This document shows positions 3,380-34,425 of a stretch of 64,000 nt of DNA, piece after piece. The DNA is from Hominibacterium faecale. Lineage in GTDB: Bacteria; Bacillota; Clostridia; Peptostreptococcales; Anaerovoracaceae. Below the pieces are notes generated by a model. That model was not told the DNA's origin. It made no database searches and saw only the letters and a program-made list of their open reading frames with translations. The stretch lies in NCBI RefSeq assembly GCF_020734085.1, contig NZ_JAJAGH010000008.1, forward strand, positions 5,743-69,742. Direction: 5' to 3'. The translations under genes and the position numbers were made by a program. How positions within the stretch are numbered: the stretch's first letter is position 1; each line of letters starts with the position of its first letter.

Positions 3380-4364
3380 AATTGATGCACTTGTAGAATT
3401 TGCGGCAAATTTCCGGCCAGGAAATTCCATCCTCCGCCATAATCCACATCATCTTGGTCAGAACGGCTTCCAGGGTCATATCCTTGGCTTCCAAGATGCT
3501 GAAGGTTTCGTTGAGCCTGCGGCCCACCTCGTAAGTCTCCACATTGCTGCCTTCATAAGTAACCTGGGTGGTCATCACCAGCACCTTTTCCTGGGGAGCA
3601 TATTTGCTCAACTGGGAAAAAAGTTCGCTTTCCAGCGTGTCGGGAATGCCGCCCACGCCGAAACTCTCGATAATGATGCAATCGTAAAGGCGAAAGATTT
3701 CGCCAAGAAGGACCGGGGAAATTCCGGGCGTCAGCTTGAGCAGGAAGACCTTGGGATTGAGCCGGTCGTAAAAGACTACCGGATTTTTTTCGATGCTGGG
3801 CGGCAGATAGCGGATGATCCGGCCATCCTGAATAGTAGCCAGGTAGGGGTAGTTTATGCTGGAAAAGGCCGCGAAGCTCAAAGTCTTGGTCTTTTTCGCC
3901 CTCGTGCCCAGGATCACTTTGCCGTCAAAGACGATCTGAACGCCCCGGGAATGGGGATCGGCCGCATAGAGAATGCTGTCCCGCAGGTTTGCTTTGGCAT
4001 CGGTGATCTCAGAGCCGATGGGCTTTTGCGCCCCGGTGAGAACGATGGGTTTGGACGAATGCTGGATCAGATAGGAAAGAGCGGCGGCCGTATAGGCCAT
4101 GGTATCCGTTCCGTGGCAGATGACAAATCCGTCGTAATTATGATATTCTTCCCGGATGGAGCCTGCCAGCAGCAGCCAATGCTCCGGCGTGATATCGGTG
4201 CTGTCCAGATTGCAGACTGCTTTTGTTTTTAAAAGAAAATCGCTGCCGATTTCGGGAAGGTAAGAAAGCAGTTCCTCGGAAGTCAGAGCAGGGATCAGCC
4301 CATGGGGCGTCTTTACAGAGGCGATGGTGCCTCCTGTAGTTAAAATAAGTAATTTTTTCGTCAT
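3363..4364 (-). CDS. ansA: type I L-asparaginase
   Basis: Start reassigned to the internal Met (MTKKLLILTTGGTIAS, the asparaginase N-terminal threonine motif). The 116-codon upstream extension in the ORF track runs through the folE promoter/riboswitch region and is rejected. Confidence 0.8.
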   Translation of the reverse strand: MTKKLLILTTGGTIASVKTPHGLIPALTSEELLSYLPEIGSDFLLKTKAVCNLDSTDITPEHWLLLAGSIREEYHNYDGFVICHGTDTMAYTAAALSYLIQHSSKPIVLTGAQKPIGSEITDAKANLRDSILYAADPHSRGVQIVFDGKVILGTRAKKTKTLSFAAFSSINYPYLATIQDGRIIRYLPPSIEKNPVVFYDRLNPKVFLLKLTPGISPVLLGEIFRLYDCIIIESFGVGGIPDTLESELFSQLSKYAPQEKVLVMTTQVTYEGSNVETYEVGRRLNETFSILEAKDMTLEAVLTKMMWIMAEDGISWPEICRKFYKCINSDTLY

Positions 4365-28858: not shown

Positions 28859-30100
28859 ATGGCATACACCGAATTAATCAAAAACTTTGAACGTATCCGC
28901 AGCTACATGCGGGATTTTTACGTCTACGGCTTTAAGAGCCGGGACAACTTCAAACAAAAGAGCGCCCGCTCTTATGACAATGAGCGCCGGCGGATCGAAA
29001 GCTATCTGGGCGAATATATGAAGTTTCACCAGACGGCGACGGGTAAAAACGTTTTTCTATCCATCGACAGCCGCAGGACAAGGCAAAACCCTCTCTATAA
29101 AGCATGGAAGGCCAAAAGCTTTACGGACAGGGATATTACCCTGCATTTTTTGATTCTCGATATCCTCCACCAACCCGAAGAATGGCTGTCCTTGACTGAA
29201 ATTATGGAAAAACTGGAAAGCGAGTACCTATCCCGCTTTCGGGAACCGATGATCCTGGATGAATCCACCGTTCGCAAGAAACTGAAGGAATATATCGGAC
29301 TGGGCATTCTTGCAGATCGGAAACAAGGCAGACAGATGTATTACAGCAGGAGCGGGGAGCTGGCGATTGAGCCGATGAGGGAGGCCATCGCCTTTTTTTC
29401 AGAAACCGCGCCGGCGGGCGTGATCGGCAGCTTTCTGCTGGATCAGCCGGGAATGGAAAGCTCCGTGTTCACCTTTAAGCACCACTACATTGCCTGCACA
29501 CTGGACGATGAAATTTTGTGCCGCCTGCTTTCCGCAATTTCTGACGAAAAAGAGATCGCTCTGCAGCTGACAACAAAGAATCCGCACACCAACTCCACGA
29601 GGCGGGCGGTGCCTTTAAAAATCTTTGCCAGCACACAAAACGGCAGGCGGTATTTGATGGGCTACGACCGGAAGCAGCGAAAAATCACAGCTTACCGCCT
29701 GGATCGAATCGTAAAGATAGACGAAGGAGAGGTTTCACCGGATTTTGCCAGGCTGAGGGAAAAACTTGAGACCATCCGGCCGCAGATATGGGGTGTTGTC
29801 TGCGAGAGCAGAAGCACCGCCCTGGAACATGTGGAGTTCACCATACAGATCGGGGAGGGAGAGGAGCACATCTATCAAAGATTGATACGGGAAAAGCGGT
29901 GCGGCACGGTGGAGCGCCTGGACAGCAGCACCTGCAGGTTTACCGCAGACGTCTACGACAGCGGAGAAATGATCCCCTGGATCAGAACCTTTATCGGGAG
30001 GATCCTTTCCATGAACTTTTCCAATCGGACCATTGAAAATCAATTCCGGCAGGATATTGAAGAAATGTGCCGGCTCTATGGCATAGGAGGTGAAGGGTAA
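28859..30100 (+). CDS. WYL-domain transcriptional regulator (PafB/PafC-like), subunit 1
   Basis: N-terminal wHTH-like region. WYL core RRYLMGYDRKQRKITAYRLDRI. Confidence 0.55.
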   Translation: MAYTELIKNFERIRSYMRDFYVYGFKSRDNFKQKSARSYDNERRRIESYLGEYMKFHQTATGKNVFLSIDSRRTRQNPLYKAWKAKSFTDRDITLHFLILDILHQPEEWLSLTEIMEKLESEYLSRFREPMILDESTVRKKLKEYIGLGILADRKQGRQMYYSRSGELAIEPMREAIAFFSETAPAGVIGSFLLDQPGMESSVFTFKHHYIACTLDDEILCRLLSAISDEKEIALQLTTKNPHTNSTRRAVPLKIFASTQNGRRYLMGYDRKQRKITAYRLDRIVKIDEGEVSPDFARLREKLETIRPQIWGVVCESRSTALEHVEFTIQIGEGEEHIYQRLIREKRCGTVERLDSSTCRFTADVYDSGEMIPWIRTFIGRILSMNFSNRTIENQFRQDIEEMCRLYGIGGEG

Positions 30101-31008
30101 TGCTGTTTCATGAAATCTACGGCTGTTACTACAATACGGTCGCCAGGATCCTCAAAGAAGCGCGGAAGGGAACCGTCGATTGGGATGCGATGAGGCAGAT
30201 CGTTTCGGAAAATGCCTTTTCGGAGAGTTTTCTGACAATCGAGCCGGCACTGAAAAAACAAGAATGGAAGCTGATCGATGAAAAGGGGCTCACGCCGCTG
30301 AAGCACGACCCTTCCCTGCCGGTGAGCCTGCTTCAAAAGCGCTGGTTGAAAGCGATCAGCCTGGATCCGAGGATACAGCTCTTCGACGTGAATTTTGAAG
30401 GGCTGGAGGGCATAGAGCCTTTGTTCACACCCCAGGACTATGTGGTCTTTGATCAATATGACGACGGGGATCCATATGATGACCAAGCGTACCGCGAAAA
30501 CTTCCGGATGATCCTCGATGCCATAAAAAATCAGAAGCAAGTTCACGTGCTCTATGAAAACCGCAAGGGGTCGGCGCGGGAGTTTGTTTGTGTGCCCTAT
30601 CAGATGGAATACTCGGAAAAAGACGACAAGTTCAGAGCCCTGGTGGCGGGTACCAGATATGCGGATATTGTCAATATCGCCAGGATAAAAGAGTGCCGCC
30701 CGGTGGGACAAAGCGATGGGCAGATAAAAGAGCCTGCGGTAAAAAAATCGGATTATTTTGTTTTAGAACTGACCGATGAAAGAAACGCTTTGGAACGGGT
30801 GATGCTCCATTTTGCCCATTTCCAAAAGGAAGCGGAGCAGCTTTCGGATCATCGATATCGGCTGCGAATTGATTACCAGCGGGATGATGAAACGGAACTG
30901 GTGATCCGGGTGCTTTCTTTCGGCCCCATGGTAAAGGTCACCGAACCGGCAGGCTTTTTAGAACGGATCAAAGAAAGACTGATGATGCAAAAAGATTGCG
31001 GACTTTAA
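30100..31008 (+). CDS. WYL-domain protein, subunit 2 (overlaps upstream by TAATG)
   Basis: WYL-like block VHVLYENRKGSAREFVCVPYQMEY. 1-nt stop/start overlap suggests a co-translated heteromeric pair. Confidence 0.5.
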   Translation: MLFHEIYGCYYNTVARILKEARKGTVDWDAMRQIVSENAFSESFLTIEPALKKQEWKLIDEKGLTPLKHDPSLPVSLLQKRWLKAISLDPRIQLFDVNFEGLEGIEPLFTPQDYVVFDQYDDGDPYDDQAYRENFRMILDAIKNQKQVHVLYENRKGSAREFVCVPYQMEYSEKDDKFRALVAGTRYADIVNIARIKECRPVGQSDGQIKEPAVKKSDYFVLELTDERNALERVMLHFAHFQKEAEQLSDHRYRLRIDYQRDDETELVIRVLSFGPMVKVTEPAGFLERIKERLMMQKDCGL

Positions 31009-31181
31009 TAAGGTTCGCAACTTTTTTTCCATGATATAGGAAACCATTCCCAGTATACTAAAAACTGCAAGAATGCTTAAGCATGTGTCTGCGGCCGTAC
31101 ATGGGCCGGGCACTGCGGTGCGCCAGGTGTACCGGGGCGTATGTCAAAGCATGAACTGCACATGGATGGCAATCGCAAAAG

Positions 31182-31250
31182 CGATGGGGTTCGACTCCCC
31201 AGATCGCAGGTTCGATTCCTGCCTGAGTTTATCTGACTCAGCCAAGCGGT
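31182..31250 (+). other. tandem tRNA T-arm-like hairpins (GGGGTTCGACTCCCC and GCAGGTTCGATTCCTGC) plus a third hairpin, inside a 525-bp noncoding leader
   Basis: Two GGTTCGAnTCC T-loop-like motifs, each followed by a 7-nt acceptor-like segment. No D-arm or anticodon arm can be fitted, so this is not an intact tRNA. Confidence 0.35.
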
Positions 31251-31534
31251 TTTGGTAAGTAAAATTGTGTTTTGTCTGAAAGACGAAAACAGATGACATC
31301 CGTCATCTCAAGTAAGGCAATAGGCCACGTCAAGTCGTCCTTGATCAGATATGCGTCTGGTGAAGGAGCAGGCTGACAATGAGCATTGTACCCTGCCGGA
31401 AAGAGGATACCGTTTTGTGCGCCCCAGCCGGCCAGAGCATCTGCTTCCGCCGCTGCGGCAGCAAACTGAATGTTTCCGCCGTACCATGTTCATGGCAGAT
31501 TGCCAAACGAATTTCAACTGGGAGGTTTATTTAT

Positions 31535-32623
31535 ATGAAGAAAATTATCAATGAAAATCAAAGGGGGCTCCTGTTTAAAAAAGGCCGGTTTATCAGACTG
31601 GTGGAGCCGGGAGGCTGCTATTTGTTCGGCGGCGCGCAAGTGGAAATTGTTGAACTGGATGAGCCTTTGGAGCCGGTGACCTGTTCTTTGGATGTGCTTT
31701 TGAGAAATGAGGCTGTTCAGGAGCAGGTGGAGGTAGTCAATGTGGGAGATGAGGAACTGGTCCTCCACTTTGTCAACGGGCGTTTTGACCAATGCCTGGA
31801 TACGGGAAGATATGCCTTTTGGTCCCTTTATGATCGGCATGAATTCATTTCCGCAGGGATTGACCGCCCGGAAGTGGCGCAGGAGATTCCCGCTCACATC
31901 TTCGACAAGATTCCCGCCAGCTATTACATAAAAACAGAGGTTGCTGAATACGAAAAGGGCGTGCTGTTCTATGATCAGAAATTCGTCGGCGTACTGGATG
32001 CAGGCACCTATTATTTCTGGAGGGGCAAGACAAAGGTGAACGTTAAGCTGGTGGATACCCGTCTGACGAGGATGGAGATCAGCGGCCAGGAGATTCTTTC
32101 CAAAGATAAAGTGACTCTGCGTATCAATTTTGTGTGCAACTATCAGGTTGTGGATTGGGTAAAAGCGATCATCAAGCTGGATAATTACCAAGAACAGCTG
32201 CACGTAGCTGCTCAGCTGATCCTCCGCGAGTATGCGGGAAATTATCGCATCGACGAGATTTTGGAAAACAAGGAAGAACTGGCGGAGAAAGTGTTTCAGA
32301 AGTTGAAAGAAAAGGAAGCGGATCTGTACGTGCAGATCAAAGAAGCGGGTATCAAAGATATTATCCTGCCCGGAGAAATACGGGAAATTATGAACACGGT
32401 CCTTATCGCGGAAAAACGCGCTCAGGCCAACGTGATCACCAGGAGGGAGGAAGTGGCGTCCACCCGTTCCCTTCTGAACACAGCCAAGCTGATGGATGAA
32501 AACAAGACCCTTTACAAACTGAAAGAGCTGGAATATGTGGAGAAAATATGCGAAAATGTAGGAGAGATTTCGGTGGCGGGAGGCGATTTGCTGGGACAGC
32601 TGCGTGAGATCGTCGGCCGTTAG
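31535..32623 (+). CDS. SPFH/band-7 domain protein
   Basis: Start set at MKKIINENQRG (GGAGG RBS at 31521-25). C-terminal SPFH core plus coiled coil. The N-terminal G-LF-KG-F motif occurs twice (internal duplication). Confidence 0.7.
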   Translation: MKKIINENQRGLLFKKGRFIRLVEPGGCYLFGGAQVEIVELDEPLEPVTCSLDVLLRNEAVQEQVEVVNVGDEELVLHFVNGRFDQCLDTGRYAFWSLYDRHEFISAGIDRPEVAQEIPAHIFDKIPASYYIKTEVAEYEKGVLFYDQKFVGVLDAGTYYFWRGKTKVNVKLVDTRLTRMEISGQEILSKDKVTLRINFVCNYQVVDWVKAIIKLDNYQEQLHVAAQLILREYAGNYRIDEILENKEELAEKVFQKLKEKEADLYVQIKEAGIKDIILPGEIREIMNTVLIAEKRAQANVITRREEVASTRSLLNTAKLMDENKTLYKLKELEYVEKICENVGEISVAGGDLLGQLREIVGR

Positions 32624-32649
32624 CGGGATTGCGGCAAGGAGGTCCTGTA

Positions 32650-32931
32650 ATGCAAATTCTATATCTTACAATAAAACTTTATGCTCCCTGGGTTCACTCT
32701 CTGAAAGAAAAGCGGATGATCGTCAAGAGTCTGTGCGCCAGGCTCCGCAATAAATTCAACATAGCAATCGCAGAGACGGCAGAGCAGGATACCCACCAGA
32801 CGGTCGTCGTTGGTATAGCTGCTCTGGCAGCGCATCAGGCTCAGGCTGACAGCATGATGGAGAAAATCGTTCATTTTATCGAAGAGACAGTAGAGACAGA
32901 GGTTCAGTCTGTGGAGTATGAGATGAGGTGA
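32650..32931 (+). CDS. DUF503 (YlxP-like) protein
   Basis: MQILYLTIKLYAPWVHSLKEKR...FNIAIAETAEQDTHQ matches the DUF503 pattern. AAGGAGG RBS. Confidence 0.55.
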   Translation: MQILYLTIKLYAPWVHSLKEKRMIVKSLCARLRNKFNIAIAETAEQDTHQTVVVGIAALAAHQAQADSMMEKIVHFIEETVETEVQSVEYEMR

Positions 32932-33015: not shown

Positions 33016-34425
33016 ATGAAAAGCCATAATCTCGATAAAGACACCAGGGCGGAATTGTTTGATGTGCTGCTGGAAAACTCCTTTATAGGAATAACGATAA
33101 CAGATGAAAAGGGCGAAATCGTAGTTGTAAACGAGGCTCAATCAAGGATAACCAATATACCAATCGTGGAATCAATCGGGGCAAATATGGAAAGCTATGT
33201 GGAAAGCAACTATATTTCCCAGTCCGCATCCATGCAGGTAATTCAGGATAAAAAACGAGTGGTGATTAACCAGAAATTATCTGCGGGCAAGTCCCATGTC
33301 GTTGAAGGTATTCCTGTGATGGATGATGCTGATCATATAAAATATACGGTCAATTTTTTATTGGATGAATCGGAACTGGAGGAAGCAAGGCAGGAAATCG
33401 AAACGGTTTCATCTGACAAAGAAAAACTTTTCAACAAGTATCAAGAATTGCTGGAAATCCTGAACGAACAGGAAGACATCATCTATCAGAGCAAGGTTAT
33501 GCGGGATATCGTGTATCTTGCGAGCCGAGTAGCTGATCGGGATGTAGCAGTGCTGATCACAGGGCCGTCCGGTTCGGGAAAGGAATTGATCGCCAATCTG
33601 CTTCATGAAAAGAGCAGGCGAAAAACGCGACCGTTCGTAAAAATAAATTGTTCGGCAATACCGGAGCAGCTGTTGGAATCAGAGCTGTTCGGATACGAGC
33701 CGGGCGCTTTTACCGGAGGAGCGCCAAAGGGTAAGGCAGGGCTGCTCGAGTATGCGGACGGAGGGTCTATACTGCTGGACGAAATCGGCGAAATGCCGAT
33801 GCAGCTGCAGGCCAAGCTCTTGCGGGTGCTGCAGGACCAGCAGGTACGCAGGATAGGCAGCACGAAAGATATTAAGGTTGATGTACGGATTATTGCTTCT
33901 ACAAATGCAGATTTGAAAAAGCTCATTGCAGAAAAAAAGTTCAGGGAAGACTTGTATTACAGGATCAATATCGTAGATATCAAAATGCCCGGACTGGATA
34001 AGCGCAGAGAAGACATACCGCTTTTGATCGCTCATTTTGAAAAACGTTTTAATCAAAAATATGATTTCAATAAAAAATTCAGCATTGATGCCATCAATTA
34101 TCTGATGGGTTTGGACTATTGCGGAAATGTTCGAGAATTGCAAAACATCGTCGAGCGGCTCATTGTCCAAAGTTCGAATGATGTTATTACTTTGGAGGAA
34201 GCCTTTGCTGCCATGGGTATCCTCACCATCGAGGAGGATGGGGAAGGAGGAAGGGAACTTATCAAAGTAGAAGAAGAGATGTCACTGAAAAAGATTATGG
34301 AACAATATGAAAGAAAGATCCTTCTTCATTATAAAAAAGTATATGGCAAAGGCACAGTGATGGCAGAAAAACTAAAGACTGACCAAGCCACAATCTCTAG
34401 GAAGCTAAAAAAATACGGTTTATAG
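33016..34425 (+). CDS. sigma-54-dependent transcriptional activator (PAS, AAA+, HTH)
   Basis: Walker A GPSGSGKE, GAFTGG sigma-54 contact motif, ESELFGYEPGAFTGG, and C-terminal HTH. Confidence 0.85.
   Translation: MKSHNLDKDTRAELFDVLLENSFIGITITDEKGEIVVVNEAQSRITNIPIVESIGANMESYVESNYISQSASMQVIQDKKRVVINQKLSAGKSHVVEGIPVMDDADHIKYTVNFLLDESELEEARQEIETVSSDKEKLFNKYQELLEILNEQEDIIYQSKVMRDIVYLASRVADRDVAVLITGPSGSGKELIANLLHEKSRRKTRPFVKINCSAIPEQLLESELFGYEPGAFTGGAPKGKAGLLEYADGGSILLDEIGEMPMQLQAKLLRVLQDQQVRRIGSTKDIKVDVRIIASTNADLKKLIAEKKFREDLYYRINIVDIKMPGLDKRREDIPLLIAHFEKRFNQKYDFNKKFSIDAINYLMGLDYCGNVRELQNIVERLIVQSSNDVITLEEAFAAMGILTIEEDGEGGRELIKVEEEMSLKKIMEQYERKILLHYKKVYGKGTVMAEKLKTDQATISRKLKKYGL

Follow-up and report, generated by a model that had tools for sequence, protein, structure and literature searches.

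RtcB repair operons are poorly understood with regard to their substrates, the roles of their accessory proteins and the reason why tRNA-like RNAs travel along with them. A locus of Hominibacterium faecale raises the last of these questions in concrete form. In a 64-kb stretch of this genome (contig NZ_JAJAGH010000008.1, positions 5,743 to 69,742; hereafter, the window), an intergenic region of 526 nucleotides (nt) lies between a pair of WYL-domain regulator genes, WYL-A and WYL-B, and a gene for an SPFH (Band-7) protein of the slipin type. An exact protein match in the database bears the name Anaerovorax odorimutans. A first-pass annotation described this region as a structured leader containing two hairpins that resemble tRNA T arms, and offered three explanations: tRNA 3'-end fragments stacked by integrase attachment events, which it favoured, a tRNA-like element in the SPFH leader, or an unrecognised non-coding RNA. 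What, then, is encoded in front of the SPFH gene? Comparison with orthologous loci reveals a conserved, covarying, folded RNA of two domains and ~440 bases, with which the SPFH(-RtcB) transcription unit begins. We consider it likely that the leader of the SPFH gene of an RtcB-type RNA-repair module encodes this two-domain RNA, with Domain 1 being a permuted tRNA mimic fused to a three-way junction.

Two conserved domains of the leader RNA

Relatives of the SPFH protein are encoded by at least 563 GTDB species, many of which are gut Clostridia. As a comparison set, we used the best 80 of the 563 confirmed relatives, taken as 80 loci from GTDB species genomes. The families in this set are Lachnospiraceae, Oscillospiraceae, Ruminococcaceae, Acutalibacteraceae and Christensenellaceae; Dielma is also represented. 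The same intergenic RNA is present ahead of the orthologous SPFH gene in more than 70 Clostridia species, and both in the window and in more than 70 loci it is located directly 5' of that gene, in a gap between WYL-B and SPFH that spans 440–700 nt across loci. The description of the region as a structured leader is borne out by folding, the whole intergenic region being more stable than its shuffles (z = −5.05), and stronger evidence than this folding score comes from more than 70 orthologous loci in which the structure is conserved and covaries.

The 5' module of Domain 1 is a three-way junction formed by helices P1, P2 and P3 (Table 1). A covariance model of this module, R1, built from 15 seed sequences, yields a single plus-strand match in the window (44.2 bits, E = 9e-10) and matches 71 other loci, once per locus and on the plus strand. 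In the R1 alignment, 93.7% of the cells are paired, compared with 33–55% for slid controls. Compensatory changes are found in 24 of the 28 pairs, and the observed values were reached by none of 500 shuffles. The GC-rich upstream stem seen in the first-pass annotation corresponds to the tip of P2.

The tRNA-like core lies 3' of the junction. Both T-arm-like hairpins of the earlier description, GGGGTTCGACTCCCC (arm #1) and GCAGGTTCGATTCCTGC (arm #2), are indeed present, although each had been placed one nucleotide too high (31187–31201 and 31207–31223 instead of 31186–31200 and 31206–31222). Their T-loop core, GGTTCGANTCC, occurs exactly twice in the window, both times in this leader, against a mean of 0.04 matches in dinucleotide shuffles, with two or more matches in none of 100 shuffles. 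In most of the 80 loci, a GTTCRANTC motif is found ~250–390 nt 5' of the SPFH start. Arm #2 is the universal arm, and compensatory changes are present in three of its five stem pairs. It is abutted by a third hairpin, also noticed in the first pass, which resembles an acceptor stem closed by a loop (the acceptor-stem-like, or AS, hairpin). The 7-nt acceptor-like segment reported to follow arm #2 is therefore the 5' strand of the AS hairpin, whereas the one reported after arm #1, GATCGCA, dissolves into a linker and the start of arm #2. The AS hairpin has 6–8 base pairs (bp) across loci, with compensatory changes in eight of nine pairs. In 74% of 57 loci, the T arm directly adjoins a perfect hairpin of 6 bp or more, compared with 11% of shuffles.

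Next in order comes a D-arm-like hairpin of the form CCNn-nnGGn-nNGG, which a parser recovered in 48 of the 57 unique loci and whose third stem pair covaries (A-U, U-A, G-C and C-G). By likeness to tRNA and to the Y RNA YrlA, the GG in its loop would contact the T loop. In all, 57 unique loci share the T-AS-D arrangement, which is conserved and covarying in 42–57 of them. Its pairs, including those of arm #2 and AS given above, were counted on an N-padded, hand-built alignment. A third covariance model was dropped because MAFFT set the T-AS-D seeds in inconsistent registers; the hand alignment was fitted to the structure, so that its 100% pairing is uninformative and only the covariation and the shuffle test count. 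Most orthologues have a tetraloop hairpin (GCCG-GAAA-CGGC or GUCC-UUCG-GGAC) that begins 2–6 nt past the D-like hairpin. The window hairpin at 31269–90 may be the analogue of this element and, by analogy with tRNA, of the anticodon arm, an assignment that is tentative because the spacer here is 13 nt, compared with 2–6 nt elsewhere. Read in this order, variable loop, T arm, closed acceptor-like stem, D-like hairpin and usually a tetraloop hairpin, Domain 1 is probably a circularly permuted tRNA mimic.

Arm #1 belongs to an insertion at the position of the variable arm, which is present in 17 of the 57 loci, always as ..GGCAAUCGn-(hairpin)-nCGAU-GGGGUUCRAnUCCCC. The stem flanking arm #1 covaries (ATCGC/GCGAT, ATCTG/CAGAT, GCTC/GAGC and TCAC/GTGA), and on these grounds arm #1 is a real feature, although one of a subfamily. 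In a subfamily (L002, L004, L010, L017, L021, L030 and others), the 5' strand of the AS stem, CGUAUGC, repeats the invariant GUAUGC beside P3, and the 3' strand is able to pair with either copy, which is not so in the window. This repeat could be an alternative conformation or the trace of a duplication.

Domain 2 is a long irregular hairpin. RNAalifold predicts 35 pairs, 32 of which show compensatory changes; 89.3% of the cells are paired versus 35–43% in slid controls, and the covariation score of 0.676 (controls, at most 0.16) was reached by none of 500 shuffles. The covariance model R2 scores 88.1 bits in the window (E = 2e-21) and matches 73 further loci, once per locus and on the plus strand. 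Three internal loops are nearly invariant: GCCUUGYC/GCCGC, GGAUACC(G) (31405–12)/CUYAA and GCCA/UCCGC. The 3' end of Domain 2 is located 30–50 nt ahead of the start codon of the first open reading frame (ORF), and no canonical terminator separates the two domains in any of 54 loci. About nine loci (including L014, L015, L027, L038, L041, L063 and L073) have an extra gene of ~210 codons with no Pfam match between the RNA and SPFH, ~640–750 nt before the SPFH start. Both domains precede the inserted gene, and thus the RNA domains track the first ORF of the unit.

Table 1 Coordinates of the leader RNA, its flanking genes and the Burkholderia elements (positions refer to the window unless a locus is named)
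Feature	Position	Strand	Basis and details
Domain 1, overall	31062–31255	+	Three-way junction, optional insertion, T arm #2, closed hairpin, D-arm-like hairpin
Domain 1 5' module, three-way junction	31062–31166	+	Covariance model R1
Helix P1a	31066–69 with 31157–60	+	Three-way junction; TGCA with TGCA
Helix P1b	31073–78 with 31147–52	+	Three-way junction; ATGCTT with AAGCAT
Helix P2	31081–31116	+	Tip, CGGCC..GGCCG at 31092–31108
Helix P3	31117–31145	+	Carries invariant GUAUG
Optional insertion, variable-arm position	31167–31201	+	UGGCA; hairpin ATCGC-AAAA-GCGAT (31172–85); abutting T-arm-like hairpin #1
T-arm-like hairpin #1	31186–31200; 31185–31201 with closing T-A pair	+	Sequence; GGGGTTCGACTCCCC
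Variable-loop-like linker and T arm #2	31202–31222	+	Linker GATC; arm GCAGGTTCGATTCCTGC, 31206–31222, GCAGG-TTCGATT-CCTGC
Closed acceptor-stem-like hairpin (AS)	31223–31241	+	CTGAGTT-TATCT-GACTCAG, stacked directly on T arm #2
D-arm-like hairpin	31242–31255	+	CCAA-GCGGU-UUUGG, GG in loop
Two stable hairpins	31269–90; 31291–308	+	Sequence; GTTTTGTC-TGAAA-GACGAAAAC; AGATGAC-ATCC-GTCATCT
Domain 2, long irregular hairpin	31371–31504	+	RNAalifold, covariance model R2
Domain 2 closing stem	31377–91 with 31481–95	+	RNAalifold
Terminator-like hairpin and T run closing the WYL pair	30996–31028	+	Terminator scan; 11-bp stem, stop codon in loop, seven T
22-nt box	31013–31034	+	GTTCGCAaCTTTTTTTCCaTGA; near-invariant in 71 aligned promoter regions
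Sigma-70-type promoter	31031–31059	+	Promoter scan; −35-like ATGATA, 17-nt spacer, −10 TATACT
WYL-A, WYL-domain regulator, 413 amino acids (aa)	28859–30100	+	Pfam WYL
WYL-B, WYL-domain regulator, 302 aa	30100–31008	+	Pfam WYL and WCX
Ribosome-binding site and SPFH/Band-7 slipin gene, 362 aa	31521–32623	+	Pfam Band_7; site GGGAGG (31521–26), ATG 31535
Burkholderia T-arm minihelix	L081, 4614–58		Between rtcR and SPFH
Burkholderia complete cloverleaf	L081, 4663–4735		ARAGORN 'tRNA-???'; anticodon arm GCCGGC-GAAA-GCCGGC

Promoter, SPFH gene and gene neighbourhood

Clustering of the neighbouring ORFs in the 80 loci gave a recurrent unit in the order WYL-A, WYL-B, promoter, RNA, SPFH, RtcB and sometimes RlaP; two small families also recur around SPFH. 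A WYL-A orthologue lies 5' of the RNA in 57 of the 80 loci, and a WYL-B orthologue is present in 52, always directly 5' of the RNA region, while RtcB (PF01139) follows SPFH in 45 loci and RlaP (PF10127) in six. The conserved gene set around SPFH is an RNA-repair gene neighbourhood. The window carries the two WYL genes, the RNA gap and SPFH, with a DUF503 gene (32629–32931) downstream of SPFH in the place where other species have RtcB.

A predicted promoter is positioned directly 5' of helix P1, and its position puts the predicted transcription start at ~31064–31067, where Domain 1 begins. The orthologous promoters, of which 71 regions were aligned, carry an extended −10 element, TGGTAAAAT. In nearly all of these regions, a 22-nt box with the consensus GTTCGCArCTTTTTTTCCGTGA is found 17–18 nt 5' of the −10 element, where it overlaps the −35 region and also supplies the WYL-B terminator with its 3' arm and T run. 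Because the box is kept even at loci that have no complementary 5' hairpin arm before it, it is the probable operator of the WYL pair. WYL-A is weakly similar (E = 0.024) to chains of PDB entries 7p5x and 9fnd, deposited as 'Transcriptional regulator-like protein', which we take to be PafBC–RNA polymerase complexes. The WYL genes had lent appeal to the attachment-site explanation; rather than marking a mobile element, they probably matter as regulators of the leader promoter.

The slipin protein has stomatin-like matches in the PDB. With a maximal Kyte–Doolittle hydropathy of 0.91 over 19 residues, it has no predicted transmembrane helix and is modelled as soluble. The NCBI gene model (414 aa) starts at 31379 and runs through Domain 2. 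We favour the ATG at 31535 and regard the longer model as an over-extension because the orthologues have 363–371 aa, a ribosome-binding site precedes this ATG and an in-frame stop is found at most 100 nt upstream of the start in 77% of the loci; the leader of the gene is ~470 nt long. Orthologue protein lengths and upstream in-frame stops also led us to reject Domain 2 as a coding sequence. Five slipin orthologues in the database (P0002, P0010, P0011, P0015 and P0017) have 496–519 aa; as with the gene model in the window, their start codons may have been placed too far upstream, so that the reading frame runs through the leader.

Proteobacterial SPFH homologues were taken from a plasmid/chromid collection. 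On a Burkholderia cenocepacia chromid (L081), the order is rtcR, two tandem tRNA-like elements, SPFH and rtcB, so that a tandem pair of T arms is seen here too. In Citrobacter freundii (L082), rtcR is followed by a T arm with an abutting closed hairpin (3385–3432), a slipin gene and a nucleotidyltransferase gene, with no RtcB. A stretch downstream of this T arm and hairpin, GCTGCC..GATGCCGTGT..GGCAAAAAGG, bears a loose, non-significant resemblance to Domain 2.

Two other features of the window are recorded for completeness. A PAS-domain sigma-54 activator, which is not RtcR, is encoded at 33016–34425 ahead of amidohydrolase and MFS genes and has no evident tie to the RNA. A THF riboswitch (RF01831; 4486–4590, plus strand; 88.7 bits), unrelated to the leader RNA, is the sole Rfam match at gathering thresholds in the window.

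Weighing the readings of the leader RNA

The first-pass statement that no full tRNA can be folded here agrees with ARAGORN, which finds no tRNA anywhere in the window; the region contains no 5'-to-3' cloverleaf with an anticodon loop of 7 nt and an acceptor stem in which the two ends pair, as expected of a tRNA gene or pseudogene. ARAGORN makes doubtful calls in the RNA region at five of 60 loci, and the Rfam tRNA model reaches 28.2 bits (threshold, 29) at a single locus, L021, with pairing that is not conserved. On the leader RNA, every Rfam 15 family stays below its threshold, no Rfam equivalent exists for R1 or R2, and relaxed searches return only sub-threshold matches to YrlA, tRNA, mascRNA and the tmRNA T arm. 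Two of the explanations offered at the outset, a tRNA-like element in the SPFH leader and an unrecognised non-coding RNA, were thus essentially right: the element is best described as a tRNA mimic at the 5' end of the SPFH transcript. The link to RNA repair through RtcB and RlaP, the permuted T, closed acceptor and D logic, the 5' three-way junction and Domain 2 go beyond that annotation.

Three alternative folds were considered and set aside. A canonical cloverleaf with the invariant GUAUGC as its 5' acceptor strand, as in the L021 match and the five ARAGORN calls, needs the AS strand CGUAUGC for its pairing, whereas the AS hairpin covaries everywhere. A long-range UGGC/GCCA helix, predicted by the minimum-free-energy fold of the window, was rejected because changes in the D strand in L038, L057 and L069 are compensated downstream and not upstream. 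The AAAACUGC/GCGGUUUU closing stem of the first minimum-free-energy fold is not conserved.

The explanation favoured in the first-pass annotation, debris of integrase insertions in the form of stacked tRNA 3'-end fragments or else decayed tRNA pseudogenes, draws on two T-arm-like hairpins 5 nt apart with ~7 nt after each and on the frequency of WYL regulators in mobile or defence loci. It is contradicted by conservation, covariation and operon context. The position and the operon are fixed in more than 70 species of several Clostridia families, every helix shows compensatory changes, and the 7 nt after arm #2 pair downstream into a conserved hairpin. Nor does the window hold a second copy of the segment or a tRNA gene; ten proteins scanned between 25.5 and 37.5 kb include no integrase domain, and a search of viral contigs gave no member of the SPFH family. 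We regard this origin as implausible in the extreme. Membership in the YrlA family, with an Ro60 (Rsr) partner encoded elsewhere in the genome, has more in its favour, as YrlA (RF02553) is the best Rfam leader match in the window (23.0 bits, E = 0.023) and has the same order of T arm, closed AS stem and D arm. The gathering threshold of that model is 69 bits, however, and while it aligns the T and AS elements at 31206–41, its outer stems are mismatched. In 10 orthologous loci, the model gives no match at E ≤ 10, and the Citrobacter SPFH leader likewise yields none. A GNCGAAN0-1G motif and a helix of the 5' and 3' ends are lacking, as is a TROVE-sized family in the neighbourhoods. True membership is accordingly very improbable.

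A more serious contender is a purely cis-regulatory leader of the riboswitch, T-box or protein-operator type, which would sense a damage signal (tRNA fragments, 2',3'-cyclic-phosphate ends or a small molecule) and control translation or stability of the SPFH-RtcB mRNA, with no RNA acting in trans. The absence of a terminator between the domains, the short and constant distance of Domain 2 from the start codon of whichever ORF comes first, invariant internal loops that resemble ligand- or protein-binding sites, and the lineage-specific character of the 5' module and Domain 2 all fit such a leader. Yet neither a terminator/antiterminator pair nor conserved sequestration of the Shine–Dalgarno sequence was seen in it, and tRNA-like RNAs occupy the same position in loci governed by RtcR and sigma-54; the equivalent RNA of Salmonella, YrlA, is stable and Ro60-bound (PMC4201824). 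We judge a leader acting exclusively in cis to be unlikely. Part of it is compatible with the permuted tRNA mimic, since Domain 2 could act in cis while Domain 1 is released.

Several observations weigh against the permuted tRNA mimic as the RNA of a repair module. RtcB and RlaP are both absent from the window, so that the RNA accompanies SPFH alone here. R1 and R2 find nothing significant in the Burkholderia and Citrobacter leaders, apart from one local hairpin resemblance of 2 bits; the 5' module and Domain 2 may hence have a regulatory role that is specific to the lineage and separate from SPFH binding. The loop of the D-like hairpin is short, and the tetraloop hairpin that we take for the anticodon-arm analogue stands 13 nt away in the window. 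The tRNA-like fold itself is deduced from secondary structure and analogy, and when the arrangement was re-permuted in silico to tRNA order, ARAGORN called only three of 48 constructs, a result that decides little because the anticodon-arm analogues carry tetraloops.

With the permuted mimic as the preferred reading, we infer the transcription start, processing, protein partners and function of the RNA and propose the following working model. The WYL pair would act at the 22-nt box to turn the promoter on after damage to RNA or other nucleic acid. The tRNA-like domain would be the cognate RNA partner of a soluble SPFH oligomer, as Y RNA is for Ro60. Having neither an anticodon loop nor a CCA end, it could not decode or be cut by anticodon nucleases. 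To enzymes that handle tRNA (RtcB, RlaP) or to ribotoxins, the SPFH–RNA complex might then present the shape of a tRNA, recruiting or competing for such tRNA-recognising proteins, and Domain 2 would affect expression of the first ORF in cis or provide an SPFH-binding site. In a bolder form, to which we give some credence while doubting it on balance, the Clostridia leader would define a large undescribed class of non-coding RNA, in which the permuted mimic with its three-way junction is joined to a Domain 2 that serves as a sensor or aptamer for RNA damage (tRNA halves, 2',3'-cyclic-phosphate ends) or as a docking site for a soluble stomatin cage, the whole forming an SPFH–RNA particle that would be the counterpart of Ro60–Y RNA in gut Firmicutes.

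Relation to known RNA-repair RNAs

The locus provides a widespread and strongly covarying candidate RNA partner for the SPFH branch of RtcB systems, with defined parts open to direct testing: the promoter box, two T-loop modules and Domain 2 with its invariant loops. By-products of the analysis are the corrected call of the slipin gene and two covariance models without Rfam equivalent. A tRNA-like RNA beside Band-7 and RtcB is already known as a prediction of 2016, as described in a citing paper, and is absent from Rfam. Several features appear to be new: the Clostridia RNA is permuted, it carries a dedicated three-way-junction module, a strongly covarying Domain 2 and, optionally, a second T-loop module, and its promoter has a WYL-controlled box.

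YrlA is the Y RNA of rsr-yrlBA-rtcBA operons, with the order T arm, closed AS stem-loop and D arm; the YrlA of Salmonella is a stable RNA bound by Ro60, and published YrlA genes are found at most 4 kb from rsr, with the same strand expected of a family member (Chen et al. 2014, PMC4201824). The Clostridia RNA shares with it the setting in an RtcB repair operon, the permuted core of variable region, T arm, closed acceptor-like stem-loop and D arm, the T-loop sequence GGUUCGAnUCC, and the lack of an anticodon loop and a CCA end. Unlike YrlA, it has no Ro60-binding helix of the 5' and 3' ends and no GNCGAAN0-1G motif near the 5' end, and no conserved closing helix surrounds its tRNA-like part. 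Its partner gene is SPFH, with no TROVE-sized (rsr) family among the recurrent neighbours of the 80 loci, and it further has a 5' three-way junction, Domain 2 as a separate unit and, in some loci, a second T-loop module. The Clostridia chain is interrupted after the anticodon-arm analogue and that of YrlA in the anticodon loop, and the regulators are a WYL pair in the former case and RtcR in the latter. As far as sequence and pairing can tell, the Clostridia RNA is a YrlA-type tRNA mimic, yet no member of the YrlA family.

The other near counterpart among tRNA-like RNAs of RNA-repair operons is the 'band 7-associated tRNA' that Burroughs and Aravind predicted in 2016 beside Band-7 and RtcB, as reported by Wang et al. 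2018 (bioRxiv 10.1101/312249). According to the same account, YrlA is occasionally encoded beside Band-7, and these predictions lack validation. Both RNAs are tRNA-like, adjoin Band-7/SPFH and are proposed as the cognate RNA of the SPFH scaffold; RtcB is part of the neighbourhood in 45 of the Clostridia loci and is absent from the window. In that description, the band 7-associated tRNA is 'strongly resembling an authentic tRNA', whereas the Clostridia RNA is permuted, gives no ARAGORN call in the window and, compared with the RNA as described in the citing paper, bears two further conserved modules. The tandem elements of Burkholderia are presumably the published band 7-associated tRNA, and the three-way junction and Domain 2 appear, from the sequences compared, to be specific to the Clostridia version. 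Together, the Burkholderia cloverleaf and the permuted forms of Citrobacter and Clostridia show SPFH-associated tRNA mimics in two topologies, which argues that the tRNA shape itself is selected. The Clostridia form can be read as the Burkholderia cloverleaf after circular permutation, in which a loop caps the acceptor stem and the chain ends fall between anticodon arm and variable loop.

The proposed SPFH–RNA pair would also parallel Ro60 (Rsr) with its Y RNA, as in both cases a ring- or cage-forming protein and a modular non-coding RNA would be encoded with RNA-repair enzymes. The protein folds differ, SPFH versus TROVE/HEAT. In Escherichia coli and Salmonella, the RtcR-controlled rtcBA operon is an inducible RNA-repair system in which the ligand-binding domain of RtcR senses damaged tRNA (Hughes et al. 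2020, PMC7790460). RtcR is a CARF-domain activator of sigma-54, whereas the Clostridia unit has two WYL proteins, maybe PafBC-like, and a sigma-70-type promoter with an extended −10 element and the 22-nt box. By analogy, a WYL regulator could be the sensing counterpart of RtcR in the Clostridia unit.

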